64,000 bases of DNA from Acidobacteriota bacterium (GCA_016710075.1 JADJLO010000034.1:13484-77483), one strand, 5' to 3'; positions 41,806-50,745 are shown, counted from the stretch's first letter. Translations and numbers: made by a program. Notes: generated by a model not told the origin, from the sequence alone.

Positions 41806-41920
41806 AGCGCAGGCGTCTCGCCTGCCGGAATTCAATACTCGAACCCTGGCCATCGAATAGGCTACGATTGAATTCAAGCAGGCGGGGCGCCTGCGGTCCC
41901 ACTCGCTTGTCACTGTTTGT
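41806..41920. repeat. hairpin-repeat element (GCGCAGGCGTCTCGCCTGC - 52 bp - CAGGCGGGGCGCCTGCGGTCCCACTCGCTTGTCACTGTTTGTC); left boundary of the Rhs/TA block
   Basis: The right arm plus tail (43 bp) is 100% identical to 47882-47924. Confidence 0.8.
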
Positions 41921-41967
41921 CGTGTCCCTTCGGTAAGGCGTCTTGACACTGGCATACCGAGATCCCG

Positions 41968-42225
41968 TTAAACACGCCGGTCAGTTTCTCTAATGTGTCT
42001 CTTTCGGTAAGCCGGTGAAATCTGGACTGGATCCTCGCGTCTGATCCATTCCAGTTTACTGAGTTTCTGACAGGCTGCATCCTCAACTCCGCCCATCAGA
42101 ACTTCATCCCACACCGCGGAGGGCACAAGTATTTCGCGAAAGAGTTGGGGCAATAATCCTTCCTGTCCGCTTTTGCAAAGTGTGATCAGCGGAGAGGCAT
42201 TGATTACTGCACGTTCATTGAACAA
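41968..42225 (-). CDS. DUF3368 (PIN-like) toxin, 3'-truncated (~85 of ~150 aa)
   Basis: VINASPLITLCKSGQEGLLPQLFREILVPSAVWDEV matches the DUF3368 N-terminus; the ORF ends early, beside the repeat element. Confidence 0.6.
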   Translation of the reverse strand: MFNERAVINASPLITLCKSGQEGLLPQLFREILVPSAVWDEVLMGGVEDAACQKLSKLEWIRREDPVQISPAYRKRHIRETDRRV

Positions 42226-42469
42226 CTTTCAGCTCCTGATCTATTTCCTCTGCCGAATATTGGAAAGGTGACACCTCAAAGCGTGAAAGGGCTTCAATGA
42301 ATTCGGCCCGGCTGAGACCCGCTATTTCGGCAGCTTTCCCTTGGGAGACCCTGCCTACTTCATACCATTTGACGGCGGCGGCGATGCGCATCTCCTTCAC
42401 GAATTCGTCTGGCGCGTATCTCAATGCCGAAAAGACACTGTCTGGTAACTGAACCGATATCGTTGTCAT
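42215..42469 (-). CDS. UPF0175-family antitoxin
   Basis: VKWYEVGRVSQGKAAEIAGLSRAEFIEALSRFEVSPF; partner of the DUF3368 toxin; genes overlap. Confidence 0.65.
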   Translation of the reverse strand: MTTISVQLPDSVFSALRYAPDEFVKEMRIAAAVKWYEVGRVSQGKAAEIAGLSRAEFIEALSRFEVSPFQYSAEEIDQELKVVQ

Positions 42470-42471
42470 TT

Positions 42472-44140
<1,669 letters not shown>

Positions 44141-44269: not shown

Positions 44270-44821
44270 TTATTGACCCACTGAGCCAGATTTCAGTATT
44301 TCATCAGTTGAAACCTCAACGACGTTTCCGCTCTTAACTATGAAATAAGTCATATGACTATTGGCATTGTAGCTTGGGGCAGAAATGCTATAGTACTTTC
44401 CGTCAAGCAACTGAGGCGGTTTGACATTGTCACGGGGGTATACCTGCCTGAACCCATGTGGAATTTCGCCATAAATTATTGTTGGTAAGTCAGGAATTCT
44501 CTTTCCCCTTCCAGGATCGAGTTGCCAAATTGTGCGATTTTCCCCAATTACTTGCTTTATCTTCAATAACTCTTCGTTGGTTACTATTTTGTCCGCTACA
44601 CCCACTACAAGCTTCACCTCGTCAAGTGAATATGGGCCCGAAACATACATCTGAGCAAGGATCCCATTGCCAGAAAAGGTGAGTTTAGGCGGGTTATCTT
44701 TGGTGACCCTCACCTTGGTGTCTATTTCACACCCTACGAGCATTGCCATCGAAAGCAAGGTCAGTAGCACAGCCGCTTTTCTAGTGACCATGTTATTTAT
44801 TATATTCATCCCGTTTCTCAT
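44270..44821 (-). CDS. lipoprotein, putative immunity protein for Rhs toxin cassette B
   Basis: Lipobox MLVGC. Paralogous to 45734..46156 (CxxEIDTK-R-...NPP-F-SG-G...SGPY...YG..P.GF.Q...EGKYY). Sits 14 nt after the toxin stop. Confidence 0.55.
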   Translation of the reverse strand: MRNGMNIINNMVTRKAAVLLTLLSMAMLVGCEIDTKVRVTKDNPPKLTFSGNGILAQMYVSGPYSLDEVKLVVGVADKIVTNEELLKIKQVIGENRTIWQLDPGRGKRIPDLPTIIYGEIPHGFRQVYPRDNVKPPQLLDGKYYSISAPSYNANSHMTYFIVKSGNVVEVSTDEILKSGSVGQ

Positions 44822-44834
44822 TTTTTCATATGCT

Positions 44835-45695
44835 TCATCTGTGCCCCACGACTATGCGCGTGCAAGGATGGAATGCTTTTATTGGAATCCCGAATAACCA
44901 TGATGCAACAAAATTCGAAAAGTGCCTTGCACCACCTGGTTTTGCTTCCTCCCAGTGTAGGCTAAACCTAACAGGACCGGCAATATCTGGATTAAAGTTT
45001 TTCCCAGGCCGCCCCATTGAAAAATGATACCATTCCCCGTTGTACTGTTTTCTGTAATCGTTATCTCCCCAGTGATCGAGATGGGGATCATTTGAGAACC
45101 GCTCCCATCCATTTACTTTTACCCTACCCTCAAAATCGCTAAAGCTTCCTGAGTTGGTTATCCTATAAGTGTGTGCATTTTCAATCCAATTATGTGCCAC
45201 TCCGATTGGATTGAGGAGTTGATTATAAATCCCGTTGGGGCCAATGGCTTGATCCCAAGGAGGTTCTCCACAGGGTTGATTTTTCTCTTGCTGATTCTGC
45301 ATATCACCCTGTTGCCCTCCTCCACCGCCACCACCTCCTCCACCACCGACATCACCCCCTCCGCCACTCCCTCTACCATTGTAATTGAAGTAGAGATACC
45401 ACAAGAACCTTAGATAATCCGCTCCAACATAAGACGGATTATCAGGTGGGCTGGAGGGAGGAATTGCCAGGAATAGCCCGGTAGGATCCGTGAAATTCAC
45501 CGGATCATTCCCGACATAGCTGTAGAGGTTCAGGCTCTGTGGATTGGCGGCATCAGCCGCCCCTAGTCCCAGCGGGTCCGCCTGCATGAACCTCCCTGAT
45601 TGTGATGGTAGAACCTCGCGTTGGCGTAATCCAGGTTTGTCGCCCAGTTCCACTCGTATCCGGTGAACTTCCTACTGTTGAGATAAGCTGGGTTT
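44835..45695 (-). CDS. orphan Rhs C-terminal tip + polymorphic toxin domain B (unassigned Cys/His-rich domain); 1-nt frameshift near 45590-45600
   Basis: ...AYLNSRKFTGYEWNWATNLDYANARFYHHNQG (one frame) then RFMQADPLGLGAADAANPQSLNLYSYVGNDPVNFTDPTGLF (DPxGL core end), then a Gly-rich linker and a CT domain with C..P.W, HWG, YNGEWYHFSMGRP. Confidence 0.65.
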
Positions 45696-45733
45696 ATGCA
45701 ATGTATGCAAAATTCGAGATTCCCTGTGCCAAA

Positions 45734-46156
45734 TTACTCTCTTTTAACTTCAACTGCGACATTGTTTTGGATTTTAAAGGCTGTAAAACCTGAACGTGCG
45801 CCGTGGACATAAACGAAAATAGTGTAATATTTTCCTTCCTCAAGAGGTATAGGTTGTCCTTGTTGAGGAAATTGCTGAGAGAAGCCTGATGGAAGAGAAC
45901 CATATGTAATAGGTATTAGCCTCCATACCGGCAGATCCGTCATTCCTGTGATTTCCCATAAACGCAAAGACTCAATGTTATTTAAGTTAGTGTATGGTCC
46001 GCTCATATGAATGTAAGGACAACAACCTGTGCCTGACAACTTAAATGTCGGCGGGTTTTTATTGTCAATCAGTCTAATCTTCGTATCGATCTCAAAAGTA
46101 CAGGCGCCTATTAAGAGTAATGCGATAACGATATTCAAAAACATATGCTTTCGCAT
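45734..46156 (-). CDS. lipoprotein, putative immunity protein for Rhs toxin cassette A
   Basis: MRKHMFLNIVIALLLIGAC lipobox; paralogue of 44270..44821. Confidence 0.55.
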   Translation of the reverse strand: MRKHMFLNIVIALLLIGACTFEIDTKIRLIDNKNPPTFKLSGTGCCPYIHMSGPYTNLNNIESLRLWEITGMTDLPVWRLIPITYGSLPSGFSQQFPQQGQPIPLEEGKYYTIFVYVHGARSGFTAFKIQNNVAVEVKRE

Positions 46157-46219
46157 AAAAACTATAGATAGTTTATCCATTCTTGCACTATTACTATTGA
46201 ATAGCATAGATCTGATTCC

Positions 46220-47865
46220 TCAAAATGGTCGCCTATACCAGGCACCCACAGGTGAAAACACATTTTTGTCCCACCAGTCTTTTGCGTGTTCTCTTGAAGA
46301 TGGTTGAAATAGTTGCTCGCAGTGAATGTCCAACCAGGACGGTGGTGAAGATGATAGCCAAGGTCGTCCGATTGTTAAGTGAAACCACATTCCATTATAG
46401 TAGTGCTCAAAGTCAGGTCCTCCCCAATGCGGAGGATTGATATTTATATAATGCTCCCATCCATTTCCAAGAGCCTTTTGGATTACTGAATAGTATGAGT
46501 TTGGTTTCCCTTTTGGTACTACTTGCCATTCATTATCCTTTATCGCATAGCTAAATCCTAAAGGATCTAAAACCATATTAAATGCTTTGACGGCTTCATC
46601 CCATTTAGGTGAATCGGGCCTACATTTTGACTTGACAGGTGGTTTATTCTGGTTTGGTGTCGCCGGATTTTGCTCCTCACCGCCACCACCTCCTCCGCCA
46701 CCAACATCACCCCACCAGCCGCCGGAAGTGTTCCACCCCCAATGCCAGCCCCATCCAAAACCAAATTCAGCTCCAACATACGACGGGTTATCAGGTGGGC
46801 TGGAGGGAGGAATTGCCAGGAATAGCCCGGTAGGATCCGTGAAATTCACCGGATCATTCCCGACATAGCTGTAGAGGTTCAGGCTCTGTGGATTGGCGGC
46901 ATCAGCCGCCCCTAGTCCCAGCGGGTCAGGCTGCATAAATCTGGCTCGGTTGTGATGGTAGGTTCGAGCATTAGCATCATCCAGATTCGTTGCCCAGTTG
47001 CGCTCATAGCCCGTGAACTTCTTGCTGTTCAGATAAGTCCCGCCCGGAGCCACTTCCAGCAGTGTCTGCCCGTGAGGATCGAACTCTCCGCGATAGGTCA
47101 CATTCCCATTCACATCTGTCAACTTCCGTCCGCTGCCCAGATGATCCGAATGTACCCAGTAGAATTGCGAATCATAGCTCAGCAGCCCAAGCGACTGTCC
47201 GCTCGGCCCGTAGACATAGGCTCGATACACACCTCCGGTCGTAGCTTCTACAACTGGCTGCCCCAGCACGCTCGACCAGATGTAATACAGATTCCCGTAC
47301 CCGCCCGTGTTCTGTACTACCTTCCGCCCGTCGCCGTCATAACCGTAGGTATTGCCGACGGCTCCTGCCGCCGTCAGCCGGTTCGCCGCGTCATAAGTAT
47401 AATTCCAGCCGCTGCCCGAAGTCATATTGCCGGCATTGTCATAGGCGAACCCCGTGTTGTTGATCCGGTTGGTCGATGGCGCTCCGCTCGCGTTCGTCGC
47501 ATAGCTCAAGCTATAGCTGCCCGTCTCGCCGCCTCTGCTTGCCGTCACCCCGGTCAGGTTCCCCTCACCCGGATAGGTCGTCAGGATGCCCACACCGGGA
47601 GCGGCGATGTGCACCTGTGTCGCGCTCCAGTTGGAGAAATTCGCCAACTGGTCGACATTCGTTTTCGCGGCCGCGGTGATCAGGTTTGAGGCTGAATAAC
47701 CCGCCGGATAGTAAGGTTTGGTCGAAATATCCTGCCCGTCGTTTCCCGCCGAGGCGACAACCAGCGTGCCTTTCGTCGACGCCCGATTGACGTCATCGAG
47801 CAGGGCTTGTGAAAACGCATTCACTCCGAAATCGATTGAGCCTCACCTGGCTGTGGAATTACAGC
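46220..47865 (-). CDS. chimeric protein: subtilisin (S8) fragment - Rhs C-terminal core/tip - polymorphic toxin domain A
   Basis: N-terminus GSIDFGVNAFSQALLDDVNRASTKGTLVVASAGNDG...FSNWSATQVHIAAPG (S8 region up to, but not including, the catalytic Ser). It switches at GNLTGVTAS into Rhs repeats, ...YLNSKKFTGYERNW...RFMQPDPLGLG...DPTGLF, then CT domain A (C..P.W, NGWEHY, PHWGG, YNGMWFHLTIGRP). Confidence 0.7.
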
Positions 47866-47874
47866 AGTTGATGA

Positions 47875-47925
47875 TTCCAGGCAGGCGGGGCGCCTGCGGT
47901 CCCACTCGCTTGTCACTGTTTGTCT
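47875..47925. repeat. half-copy of the 41806-41920 hairpin-repeat element; right boundary of the Rhs/TA block, abutting the tex stop
   Basis: CAGGCGGGGCGCCTGCGGTCCCACTCGCTTGTCACTGTTTGTC is identical to 41878-41920. The S8 fragment reading frame begins right after a TGA beside it. Confidence 0.8.
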
Positions 47926-47926
47926 G

Positions 47927-50338
47927 TTACTTCGATTCCTTGTCCTTCTTGTCCATCAACGAGGCGAAGGGGTTATTGAAGGCCTTGTTGGCGGGTGGGC
48001 GTGGCTGTTGTTTGTTTTGTGGTTTGGGCCCCCTGCGGTCGTCCTTTTGTTTCTTCTGTGAATCATGGCCTTCGGGCTGCTGTTTGAGCCGTTCTTCCTT
48101 CCTGGCTTCCGGATCGGACTTCATTGAGAGGGCGATCTGGTTCTTGTCGAGATTTACCTCGATGACGCGGACTTTGACATGGTCGCCGGGGTTGACGACA
48201 TCGCGCGGTTCCTTGATGAAGCGGTTGCTTAATTGTGAGATGTGAACGAGGCCGTCCTGGTGGACTCCGATATCGACGAAAGCGCCGAAATTGGTGACAT
48301 TGGTTACTATGCCGGGACAGATCATACCGGGTTTGAGATCGGCGACTTCGTGGATGTCGTCGCGGTAGGCGAATGCGGCGAACTCCTCGCGCGGATCGCG
48401 GCCGGGTTTTTCGAGTTCACGGACGATGTCGTCGAAGGTGAATTCGCCAATCTCCTGGCGCAGCGATTGAGCCTCTTTGACGTAATGAACACCCGGGCCA
48501 AGCAGATCCGGGATATTCTTGCCGAGCTGCGAGGCGAGGTTTTGGAGGAACGGATACCGTTCCGGATGGACTCCGGTGTTATCAAGCGGGTTGTCACCGC
48601 CGGCAATTCTCAGGAAGCCGGCAGCCTGTTCGAAAGTCTTCTTGCTGAACCTGGGAATTTCGACCAGTTGTTCGCGCGATTTGAAGAGGCCCTTTTGAGA
48701 TCTGTGCTCGACGATCTTCTTTGCCAGCGCCGGCCCGATGCCCGCGACGCGCGAGAGCAGGTGATACGAAGCCGTGTTGAGATTGACCCCTACGGAGTTG
48801 ACGCAGGTGTCGACGACCAGATCGAGGCTCTTCTTGAGCGACGCCTGATTGACGTCGTGCTGGTACTGGCCGACTCCGATGCTCTTGGGATCGGTTTTGA
48901 CGAGTTCCGCCAGCGGATCCTGCAACCTGCGTGCGATCGAGATTGCACCGCGCACGGTCAGATCCAGGTCCGGAAACTCTTCGCGGGCAACTTCGCTTGC
49001 GCTGTAAATGCTCGCGCCGGATTCGTTAACCATGACCACGGGGACGTCCAGATTCGCGGCTTTTAAAGCTTCGCGGATGAAGCTTTCGGTTTCGCGACCG
49101 GCCGTGCCGTTGCCGACTGCCACAGCGCGGATTGCGCTTGTCCCAACAACTTCAGCCAGAATCTTTGCGGACTTCTCCTGATCGGTTTTGCTCTGAAGAT
49201 ACATCACACCGCTGGCGACGTATTTTCCGGAATCATCGACGACGGCGAGCTTGCATCCGGTGCGGATTCCAGGGTCGACGCCCAGAACAGCCTTCGGCCC
49301 GTAGGGGGACGACAGCAAAAGCTTCCTGACGTTTTCAGCAAAGACTTTAATGGCGGCCTCGTCGGCGATGTCCTTTAACGCCCTGTGGACTTCCGTGTCG
49401 ATGCTCGGCGAGACGTAAACTTTGAGTGCCAGCTTCGCCGATCTGAGCAGCACTTCCGCGCCGGGAGAATCGGAAATTGTGCAGGAGGCATTCTCGAAAG
49501 CCTTCAAAAGAATCTCGTCGAAATCCGTGTCTTCAGGCGCTGCGCCGAGAGTCAGGACAAGCTCTTCCTCCATCCATCCGCGCCGCATCGCCAGATAACG
49601 GTGAGAATTCTGTGGCTGCATCAATGAAGTCACTGGCTCGAAGTATTCAAAATAACGTTCGTATTTGCTGTTGGGTTTGGCCTTATCGCCTGTTTTGGTG
49701 ACTACGGCACCGCGTTCGAAAGAGAGGCGCCTGACGGTTTCGCGAAGCTCGGCCGTCTCGCTGAGCTTTTCAATCAGGATATCCTGGGCTCCCTGAATCG
49801 CCGAGGCGGCATCAGTGATTCCCTTCTCTTCATTGAGGAAGCCGGCAGCAAACGATTCCAGGGTCTGTCCCGGTTCAGCCGTGATCTCTCCGTGGCCGCA
49901 TGCCCAGATCCAGTCTGCCAGCGGTTCGAGGCCGGCCTCTTTCGCCATTGTCGCTTTGGTCTTTCGCTTCTGTTTGTATGGCAGATAGAGGTCTTCGAGC
50001 TGTTCGAGATTGAAGGTAATCTCGATCTTCGCCTTCAGTTCCGGGGTGAGTTTGCCCTGGCGCTCGATCTCTTCGAGGATGAAAGCCTGACGCTTGACGA
50101 TCTCATTCCCTTTCTCATCGGCATCGATCACCTGCTGGATCATTACTTCATCGAGATTGCCAGTCTGCTCTTTACGGTATCTGGCGATGAACGGGACCGT
50201 CCCTCCTTCCGCCACCAGAGCCAGCACTGCGGCAGCCGATTTGACGGCAATGCCCGGATAATTTGCCTGAAACCATGTTTCGAAATTCACACTTACTCCT
50301 CTCAACAAACGAACAATTCGAAGCGCGCATAGTGCCAC
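47927..50338 (-). CDS. tex: Tex-like transcription accessory protein (YqgF/RNase H-like, HhH, S1 domains)
   Basis: ...EGGTVPFIARYRKEQTGNLDE N-terminal signature and a C-terminal S1 domain. The N-terminal ~15 aa of the ORF may be an over-extension. Confidence 0.85.
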   Translation of the reverse strand: MALCALRIVRLLRGVSVNFETWFQANYPGIAVKSAAAVLALVAEGGTVPFIARYRKEQTGNLDEVMIQQVIDADEKGNEIVKRQAFILEEIERQGKLTPELKAKIEITFNLEQLEDLYLPYKQKRKTKATMAKEAGLEPLADWIWACGHGEITAEPGQTLESFAAGFLNEEKGITDAASAIQGAQDILIEKLSETAELRETVRRLSFERGAVVTKTGDKAKPNSKYERYFEYFEPVTSLMQPQNSHRYLAMRRGWMEEELVLTLGAAPEDTDFDEILLKAFENASCTISDSPGAEVLLRSAKLALKVYVSPSIDTEVHRALKDIADEAAIKVFAENVRKLLLSSPYGPKAVLGVDPGIRTGCKLAVVDDSGKYVASGVMYLQSKTDQEKSAKILAEVVGTSAIRAVAVGNGTAGRETESFIREALKAANLDVPVVMVNESGASIYSASEVAREEFPDLDLTVRGAISIARRLQDPLAELVKTDPKSIGVGQYQHDVNQASLKKSLDLVVDTCVNSVGVNLNTASYHLLSRVAGIGPALAKKIVEHRSQKGLFKSREQLVEIPRFSKKTFEQAAGFLRIAGGDNPLDNTGVHPERYPFLQNLASQLGKNIPDLLGPGVHYVKEAQSLRQEIGEFTFDDIVRELEKPGRDPREEFAAFAYRDDIHEVADLKPGMICPGIVTNVTNFGAFVDIGVHQDGLVHISQLSNRFIKEPRDVVNPGDHVKVRVIEVNLDKNQIALSMKSDPEARKEERLKQQPEGHDSQKKQKDDRRGPKPQNKQQPRPPANKAFNNPFASLMDKKDKESK

Positions 50339-50439: not shown

Positions 50440-50745
50440 AAATAAGTATTTTTGGATTGGGTTGGCCCCCCCTTTTTAAATAAAACAAACGGCGGAGGCG
50501 GGGGGGGGGGGGGCCCGGGGGGGGGGGGGGGGGGGGGGGGGGGACCCCGGGGAAACCGAGAAAAATAAAAAAAAAAACCCGAGGCCCCGGGGGGGGGAAA
50601 AAAAAAAATTGGGGGGCCAGTTTGGGGGCGCGTTCCGTGGGCGGGGCGGTTCCGGGGGCCGGGAAATACGGGTTGGGGGTCCCGGGGGGCCGCCCTCGGT
50701 TCTTCACCGGCGGGCCACCCGCGCTGGCTGTCAACAAAAGAAATC
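50440..50745. other. low-complexity poly-G / poly-C / poly-A tract, probable sequencing or assembly artefact
   Basis: Runs such as G14, then CCC, then G26..., A11, G9, with no coding potential other than Pro/Gly homopolymers. Confidence 0.6.

Follow-up and report, generated by a model that had tools for sequence, protein, structure and literature searches.

Two Rhs tip cassettes of a previously unclassified family, each with a predicted lipoprotein immunity gene, in a degenerate island of an Acidobacteriota bacterium

The window analyzed here, a stretch of 64,000 nucleotides (nt) from an Acidobacteriota bacterium (GCA_016710075.1, JADJLO010000034.1:13484-77483; positions are counted from its first letter), contains a degenerate Rhs polymorphic-toxin island of ~6 kb between a Tex gene and an aminotransferase gene, the features of which are all located on the minus strand. 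Two Rhs C-terminal cassettes are found in this island, each comprising the end of an Rhs core, a linker and a C-terminal tail with a toxin domain (CT-A and CT-B, respectively), closely followed by a lipoprotein gene (Table 1). The cassettes had been proposed in an initial annotation made from the DNA only, and they are borne out by the open reading frames (ORFs), by matches to the Rhs core model TIGR03696 and by the lipoboxes LIGAC and LVGC of the two paralogous lipoproteins, with both protein families recurring in public data, which rules out a chance finding. Likewise, its reading as a rearranged Rhs toxin-tip/immunity locus with an orphan retaining a core sliver agrees with duplicated segments of 237 nt and ~270 nt and with strains differing by cassette. 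Upstream RHS/YD repeats, the DPxGL core and a variable tip accompanied by a co-varying gene are all present. What had been missed is a Peptidase_S8 fragment at the start of gene A, the gene encoding CT-A, as well as the absence of any full-length Rhs from the window, the largest ORF of which (939 amino acids, aa) is located elsewhere. Neither an N-terminal delivery domain nor a signal peptide or complete YD shell was detected for Rhs within the window.

Gene A starts with a GTG codon at position 47824, since an in-frame stop codon at 47843-47845 excludes the start at 47865 assumed initially. Behind the S8 fragment it encodes ~250 aa of Rhs, consisting of YD repeats and a complete core carrying YLNSKKF..DPLGLG..DPTGLF, and then a 199-aa tail. 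The S8 match spans only profile positions 133-234 of 288 and, hence, only the central third of the subtilase model, which implies that a complete catalytic domain cannot be present in gene A. The S8/Rhs fusion is in frame, and its junction falls exactly on the border of the 237-nt repeat D1. As the same 534-aa gene occurs in two other metagenome-assembled genomes (MAGs) with 99% identity (16 differences in 1602 nt), such that the chimera is kept in three MAGs, the fusion is old and not a recent accident. Strain comparison gives a ratio of nonsynonymous to synonymous substitution rates (dN/dS) of ~0.16-0.2 for gene A, a value based on few sites. Gene A joins an inactive subtilase fragment to the C-terminal part of an N-terminally truncated Rhs.

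The second cassette, orphan B, matches merely the last half of the core model (TIGR03696 positions 41-76, E=2e-10) and has its closest relatives in P0042, L001 and L003. The initial annotation treated 44835-45695 as one ORF; the core motifs are indeed present in this segment, but the YLNS..YHHN sliver is frameshifted and the actual ORF is shorter. Relative to A, a 1-nt deletion is observed in orphan B, and the frame of the sliver YLNSRKFTGYEWNWATNLDYANARFYHHN terminates after ..RTRWD, while RFMQADPLG is read in another frame. In P0044, a protein from another assembly, CT-B is frameshifted just past GRPGK within the toxin domain, which reflects either orphan decay in some strains or a sequencing error.

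Table 1 Features of the Rhs island and its flanks, listed in descending order of window position
Feature	Position	Strand	Remarks
Homopolymer stretch	50450-50740		~300 nt of long G, A and C runs
Tex-like gene	47927-50338		island lies downstream of it
53-nt direct repeat, copy 1	47872-47924		directly 3' of the Tex gene, begins 2 nt past its stop codon
Gene A	46220-47824	-	534 aa; Pfam RHS and RHS_repeat matches; arranged as Peptidase_S8 fragment, YD repeats, Rhs core, linker, CT-A
Subtilase (Peptidase_S8) fragment	47510-47803	-	gene A aa 8-105; Pfam E=5e-7, mycosin model E=2e-10
Repeat D1, copy 1	47328-47564	-	237-nt YD-repeat segment, 98% identical to copy 2
Rhs-associated core of gene A	46823-47080	-	gene A aa 249-334; TIGR03696 positions 2-76 of 76, E=3e-16
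Duplicated Rhs core end (~270 nt), gene A	46767-47037	-	
DPLGLG...DPTGL end of the gene A core	46820-46927	-	
Linker of gene A	46625-46822	-	17 aa common to A and B (LAIPPSSPPDNPSYVGA), followed by a Trp/Gly-rich part and poly-Gly
Toxin domain CT-A	46223-46654	-	gene A aa 391-534; 38-sequence alignment, AlphaFold2 (AF2) model
Lipoprotein A	45734-46207	-	157 aa; lipobox LIGAC, Cys36 at 46100-46102; predicted cognate immunity for CT-A
Vestigial Rhs core sliver of orphan B	45600-45695	-	repeat D4; out of frame with the toxin ORF
Duplicated Rhs core end (~270 nt), orphan B	45418-45687	-	
Orphan B ORF	44835-45653	-	272 aa; Rhs core end RFMQADPLGLG..DPTGLF, linker, 211-aa tail
Toxin domain CT-B	~44838-45290	-	aligned to CT-A
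Lipoprotein B	44270-44821	-	183 aa; lipobox LVGC, Cys31 at 44729-44731; predicted cognate immunity for CT-B
5'-truncated YD-repeat fragment	42962-44090	-	RHS_repeat E=6e-12; Pfam RHS_repeat and RHS matches in 42962-43984; no start codon at its 5' end
Repeat D1, copy 2	43020-43256	-	within the 5'-truncated YD-repeat fragment
Second short YD-repeat fragment	42472-42954	-	160 aa; Pfam RHS_repeat and RHS matches; conserved in L006
UPF0175 antitoxin	42215-42469	-	Pfam E=3e-28; downstream end of the island
DUF3368/PIN-like toxin	41968-42225	-	PF11848 found on the L006 orthologue
53-nt direct repeat, copy 2	41869-41921		94% identical to copy 1

Both lipoprotein genes follow their toxin genes closely, as had been claimed, with the gaps amounting to 12 nt behind gene A and 13 nt behind orphan B rather than 14-64 nt; a gap of up to ~60 nt results only if a later Met represents the true lipoprotein start. 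Lipoproteins A and B share 29-34% identity (E=1e-20), and a profile search yielded 40 homologues with E down to 1e-99, originating from Acidobacteria and Blastocatellales MAGs and from metagenomes. In all 40 of 40 homologues, the lipobox Cys is invariant, followed by E-I-D-T and preceded by a hydrophobic leader (h-region), and both window proteins carry a signal peptide together with a lipobox of the form [LVI][ASTVI][GAS]C. No member of this family of 40 gave a match in Pfam, Imm65 included, even at lenient thresholds. The family has an immunoglobulin (Ig)-like sandwich, and lipoprotein B is predicted to be a non-enzymatic Ig/fibronectin type III-like beta sandwich with a helical insert. As this sandwich begins only three residues past the lipidated Cys, the lipoprotein is likely to sit against the membrane surface according to the model. 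On a contig of JGI 3300043331, the lipoprotein family also occurs in more extended orphan arrays, next to transposases and further Rhs tips (one of them Ntox44), and locus L022, where a homologue occurs without an adjacent toxin-family gene, may be an orphan-immunity or poly-immunity locus.

Comparison with related strains documents how this locus has been rearranged. The core ends of A and B, which constitute the ~270-nt duplication, are 96% identical, and the tips behind them 35%. The same arrangement as in the window is present in L020 (GCA_963852515.1) and L007 (GCA_016711965.1), and a mis-assembly can be dismissed because the L020 copy lies on a 1.9-Mb contig (CAWKTH010000002.1). L006 (GCA_016717465.1) lacks exactly 45480-43020, corresponding to CT-B, lipoprotein B and the YD fragment. 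In place of the one A and one B cassette of the window, a contig from wastewater (L008; ENA ERZ1764622, 1-3317) harbors a tandem pair of A-type toxin/lipoprotein cassettes with a mutual identity of 97.5%, which provides direct evidence that cassettes have been duplicated and replaced at this locus. Strains thus differ by whole cassettes, with breakpoints in or beside repeated Rhs segments. The right-hand breakpoint 43019 is shared, but the Rhs sequence it adjoins is not: 'YGYDGDG', which ends D1, precedes it in the window, and 'NFTDPT' of the core sliver (window position 45481) precedes it in L006 (8173/8174) and L008 (3041/3042). No repeat, inverted repeat or second copy explaining the shared 43019/43020 breakpoint was found at the junction. 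Lipoprotein A is 100% identical in L006 and L007, and hence in three strains including that of the window.

The tails of A and B align with E=1e-11 at the 35% identity given above, and their common scaffold, as described before, comprises poly-Gly, C..P.WD.A, NGWE, HWG and YNG.W[FY]H[LF][ST].GRP. An exhaustive hidden Markov model (HMM) search covering 1.84 billion cluster representatives identified 48 proteins at E<=1e-3 (best E 1e-70), representing 48 toxin clusters at 50% identity. In a word-indexed protein search, CT-A alone gave no match and a 38-sequence profile only four proteins; related toxin loci were found using a 6-sequence subset of the family alignment. In the 48 cluster representatives, the toxin domain is always located at the extreme C-terminus, and the long ones, which reach 1835 aa, are RHS-repeat proteins, with a DUF4214 protein as the single exception. 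The full-length members P0051 and P0055 possess N-terminal signal sequences, and a complete YD shell together with an N-terminal delivery or secretion domain is present in these two as well as in L017 and on a JGI contig, but not in gene A. Toxin and lipoprotein families stem mostly from Blastocatellia and from wastewater or soil metagenomes. Two further loci, L014 and L015, are labelled as Oligoflexales and 'Heliomicrobium' MAGs (3.6-kb and 14-kb contigs); the DUF1501/Tat-signal neighbor in L015 resembles that of L021, and these labels may be binning errors rather than spread beyond Acidobacteriota.

That the domain belongs to no named family, as suggested initially, is in agreement with searches of Pfam, NCBIfam, PHROG and PDB sequences using CT-A, CT-B and 38 relatives, none of which gave a match. 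Profile and single-sequence searches of the PDB returned only insignificant matches to PASTA, chitinase and nitrophorin, and tblastn of plasmids found nothing. A fold search with the AF2 model of CT-A (predicted local distance difference test score 88.2, predicted template modelling score 0.80; 38-sequence alignment) likewise revealed no significant structural neighbor.

In this alignment of 38 sequences (CT-A domain numbering), H76 and P118 are invariant, G65, H92, H111 and H123 are each conserved in 37, W90 in 36 and D81 in 35 members. Position 113 is occupied by Glu in 29 and by His in seven members, position 126 by Asp in 22 and Asn in 11. In gene A numbering, the conserved residues are H466, D471, H482, H501, E503, P508, H513 and D516, and both toxin domains of the window are full length and retain every family-conserved residue. 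The earlier label 'Cys/His-rich' is therefore misleading, as there are two Cys per domain and the conserved signature consists of four His and one Asp. According to the model, the domain is an alpha+beta fold of ~135 aa with the topology alpha-beta-beta-alpha-beta-beta-beta-beta-alpha. D81, H92 and H111/E113 are placed on consecutive strands of the C-terminal sheet and H76 in the preceding loop, while H123/D126 reside on the last helix, which is N-capped by S119/S120. Four invariant His and an Asp, complemented by Glu or His, on such a sheet-helix platform suggest a metal-dependent hydrolase. A pore-forming or otherwise non-enzymatic toxin is considered unlikely from the model, given the compact globular fold and the polar nature of the invariant His and Asp.

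The Cys residues behave differently. Cys11, which the model places in an N-terminal coil and not at a helix N-terminus, is present in 28 of the 38 sequences and always together with a partner Cys, and members without Cys11 also lack the partner. In the A-type clade (~19 sequences) this partner is Cys112, whereas the B-type clade (eight sequences) has W, M or Y at position 112 and, as the partner, a Cys close to the C-terminus. Two members are Cys-free and nevertheless retain every conserved His. Taken together, co-variation of the Cys pairs and retention of the His in Cys-free members argue for a structural disulfide (predicted as C401-C502, i.e., domain C11-C112, in CT-A) instead of a nucleophile, and such co-varying pairs also point to function in an oxidizing compartment. 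The linker between DPxGL and the domain resembles a transmembrane (TM) segment in four homologues, is rich in Trp and Gly in both window copies and is missing from many homologues; hence, it is accessory and not a defining part of the toxin.

A lipoprotein homologue adjoins a toxin-family gene in ~11 independent contexts. It is encoded immediately downstream of the toxin gene in window A and B, L001/L002, L003, L004/L005, L015 and L021, behind an Rhs of >2772 aa on an 18.8-kb JGI contig and behind an Rhs of at least 1420 aa in L017. In L014, an insertion sequence element lies between both genes, and in L019 the toxin is Cys-free. In the distant 'IHCHG' clade (L018), another protein is encoded downstream, likewise with a signal sequence. 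Furthermore, pairwise identities among toxins and among their partners correlate, as cognate pairs should (nine pairs; Pearson 0.74, Mantel p~1e-4). The lipoproteins are hence very probably the cognate immunity proteins, judging from gene context and co-divergence, and the initial proposal of an extracytoplasmic immunity function is strengthened by the recurrent pairing and the invariant lipobox. In a survey of polymorphic toxins, secreted or lipoprotein immunity accompanied surface-acting toxins, with the Rhs-borne Tox-JAB-1 and its lipoprotein Imm65 as the sole case of lipoprotein immunity (Zhang et al. 2012, PMC3482391). Extracytoplasmic immunity across clades, co-varying Cys, Sec-exported full-length relatives and this published pattern together suggest that the toxin acts in the periplasm or at the membrane surface.

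On balance, the island is a degenerate Rhs locus with two intact tip/immunity cassettes of one previously unclassified family, and we consider it probable that the tip is an exported, disulfide-stabilized and probably metal-dependent enzyme that acts in the periplasm and is blocked by its cognate lipoprotein. In full-length relatives, the Rhs protein would be exported by Sec and cleave itself at DPxGL with release of the tip, which would be stabilized by a disulfide linking C11 to C112 in the A clade and to a C-terminal Cys in the B clade. In the periplasm of a target cell, the tip would then hydrolyze an envelope substrate through its His and Asp residues, most likely in a metal-dependent manner, candidates being peptidoglycan, a membrane-linked precursor or a lipid, unless the cognate lipoprotein, held against the membrane surface, binds and blocks it. 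In the genome studied here, neither tip is deliverable from this locus because shell and leader are lacking, and the two cassettes would most plausibly represent retained immunity along with a recombination reservoir for full-length Rhs elsewhere; the dN/dS of gene A and the identity of lipoprotein A in three strains fit this role.

Several points weigh against this interpretation. Co-divergence of adjacent genes is expected from linkage alone, and the lipoprotein homologue of L022 has no toxin gene beside it. In some homologues, TM-like segments followed by Lys-rich stretches precede the domain, which could mean translocation across the inner membrane. Gene A and orphan B both lack a delivery domain, which leaves a toxin role in this genome putative. 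Finally, with family and fold searches empty, no biochemical activity is assignable to the toxin domain, and metal binding is deduced from residue types alone.

Among the alternatives, the papain-like (NlpC/P60 or Tae-like) Cys-His peptidoglycan amidase or peptidase suggested in the initial annotation is by far the least credible. While an N-terminal Cys and several His are conserved between both window copies and a periplasmic lipoprotein partner fits a cell-wall target, this Cys is missing in ten of 38 members and always co-occurs with one of two alternative partners in the manner of a disulfide, Cys-free members keep all His and Asp, the modelled coil position of the Cys does not fit, and Pfam gives no match. 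Another alternative is a zinc peptidase cutting peptide stems or cross-links of peptidoglycan, which would either have converged on the LAS (M15/M23) or JAB/JAMM enzymes or share a very remote ancestry with them. At the level of motifs only, H76-x4-D81, H92 and H111-x-[E/H]113 follow the LAS order (HxnD...H...HxH), with a literal HxH in seven members, and a strand H-x-E/H followed by a Ser-Ser-capped helix with H123/D126 mimics the JAMM 'HxH...SxxD'. In addition, the toxin with lipoprotein immunity reported by Zhang et al. (PMC3482391) is Tox-JAB-1, and weak PASTA-like matches (E ~0.1) fall on the N-terminal half. However, these PASTA matches are not significant, the motif spacings are unlike those of both families, and none of the 38 members matches Peptidase_M15, Peptidase_M23, JAB or Toxin-JAB1 in Pfam even at E<=5. 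As the LAS and JAMM resemblances come without fold or HMM similarity, a zinc peptidase is kept as an unlikely sub-hypothesis. Memberships in the papain-like, JAB and BECR groups are not supported for CT-A and its relatives, and membership in the LAS group finds no clear support.

A different site of action would apply if the tip acted in the cytoplasm as a RelE/barnase-like (BECR-type) nuclease or RNase and the lipoprotein blocked periplasmic entry instead of catalysis. His/Glu catalysis is typical of small secreted RNases, and the TM-like linkers of four homologues possibly mediate membrane translocation. On the other hand, the linker is absent in many members, the conserved disulfide pairs argue for an oxidizing compartment, no BECR membership was found, and the partner possesses a signal peptide and lipobox, whereas cytoplasm-acting Rhs and contact-dependent inhibition toxins are known to have cytoplasmic immunity (Zhang et al. 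2012, PMC3482391). We therefore regard the nuclease as quite improbable. Considerably more open is the possibility that the locus is dead as a weapon, its toxin ORFs being decaying relics and only the lipoproteins being maintained as orphan immunity against toxins of neighbors, even if we deem it somewhat less probable than the opposite. The missing delivery domain, signal peptide and complete YD shell, the frameshifts in the core sliver of B and inside CT-B of P0044, the full conservation of lipoprotein A across strains and the toxin-free lipoprotein of L022 would all be in line with it. Against it stand two full-length toxin domains with all family-conserved residues, the dN/dS of ~0.16-0.2 for gene A (few sites) and the homology tracts D1 and D2, which are what would let tips recombine onto full-length Rhs. 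This alternative is compatible with the periplasmic enzyme/immunity interpretation of the family and concerns the status of this copy only.

Compared with known systems, the locus most closely resembles Rhs orphan loci such as enterobacterial rhs (Zhang et al. 2012, PMC3482391), with YD repeats, a core that terminates in DPxGL...DPxGL, a small cognate gene located directly behind a variable C-terminal toxin, an orphan with the core end only, AT-rich tips and cassette polymorphism. In contrast to these, no full-length Rhs is present here and the 'main' gene is itself truncated and chimeric, with a subtilase fragment, neither the toxin nor the immunity family is represented in Pfam or NCBIfam, and full-length relatives carry Sec signal peptides rather than PAAR/VgrG-type adaptors from a type VI secretion system (T6SS). 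Tox-JAB-1/Imm65 of Bacteroidetes likewise combines an Rhs-borne signal-peptide toxin ('T2SS' class, type II secretion system) and His/Asp-type motifs with lipoprotein immunity, but the families studied here match neither Toxin-JAB1 nor Imm65 of Pfam. Its motifs are NxxxE, HxH, S and D versus H-x4-D, H, H-x-E/H and SS-x2-H-x2-D here, Imm65 is described as alpha+beta versus a beta sandwich, and Bacteroidetes are replaced by Acidobacteriota (Blastocatellia). With T6SS pairs (Tae/Tai, Tge/Tgi, Tle/Tli), the cassettes share an envelope enzyme neutralized by a downstream-encoded, periplasmic and often lipid-anchored immunity protein; however, a papain Cys-His fold, GxSxG, HKD or a lysozyme fold is not found here, and an Rhs cage bearing a Sec signal serves for delivery, with no known dependence on T6SS. 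The LAS zinc peptidases (lysostaphin/LytM of M23; VanX/VanY of M15) resemble the domain in having four His and an Asp in the order HxnD...H...HxH/E and a small antiparallel sheet, and their cell-wall substrate would fit periplasmic immunity, yet sequence and fold do not match, spacings differ, and the domain has extra His/Asp on a C-terminal helix and an N-terminal helical/beta subdomain. Going further, one may speculate, with the odds rather against it, that the CT domain founds a new structural class of enzymes that depend on metal and target the envelope, its fold being absent from the PDB. Its target would be one that known interbacterial toxins have not yet exploited, such as a lipid-linked precursor of the cell wall or outer membrane at the periplasmic face of the inner membrane; it would be neutralized by a membrane-hugging Ig-like lipoprotein and delivered by Sec-exported, T6SS-independent Rhs cages in Acidobacteriota.

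As to the flanks, the two 53-nt direct repeats bracket the 6-kb island and are the only copies in the 64-kb window; they could be an att-like duplication or a duplicated terminator. No integrase was found between them, scans for tRNAs, Rfam families, promoters and terminators gave nothing relevant to the island boundaries, and a search of metagenome contigs for an empty site or variant Tex-proximal junctions returned 0 matches. The GC content is 0.40-0.48 in the cassettes versus 0.55-0.58 in the flanks, rendering the cassettes AT-rich. The YD fragment downstream of lipoprotein B ends in D1 copy 2 and is then broken off, and the genes for the UPF0175 antitoxin and DUF3368 toxin overlap by 11 nt, this pair being conserved in L006. 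Beyond the island, the homopolymer stretch between Tex and a RicinB-lectin gene is absent from the otherwise 99%-identical L006 and L007, yields spurious Pro/Gly-rich ORFs and resembles either an artefact of assembly or polishing or a hypervariable insert.

Taken by itself, this locus is a decayed Rhs graveyard of the usual sort, and what makes it valuable is the family to which it leads. Rhs tips have been proven to yield new antibacterial activities and enzyme folds, and here a toxin/immunity family pair missing from Pfam, NCBIfam and the PDB emerges, with ~48 toxin and ~40 lipoprotein clusters. While the family is new, the kind of system is well known and unassigned Rhs tips are common. What distinguishes this one is a confident model without a structural neighbor, clear envelope targeting and testable residues, i.e., a mutable set of four His and one Asp plus a predicted disulfide, combined with strong genomic evidence for extracytoplasmic action. 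Identification of the substrate could reveal a new vulnerability of the bacterial envelope and also contribute to explaining the action of signal-peptide Rhs toxins in a phylum where interbacterial antagonism is almost unstudied.

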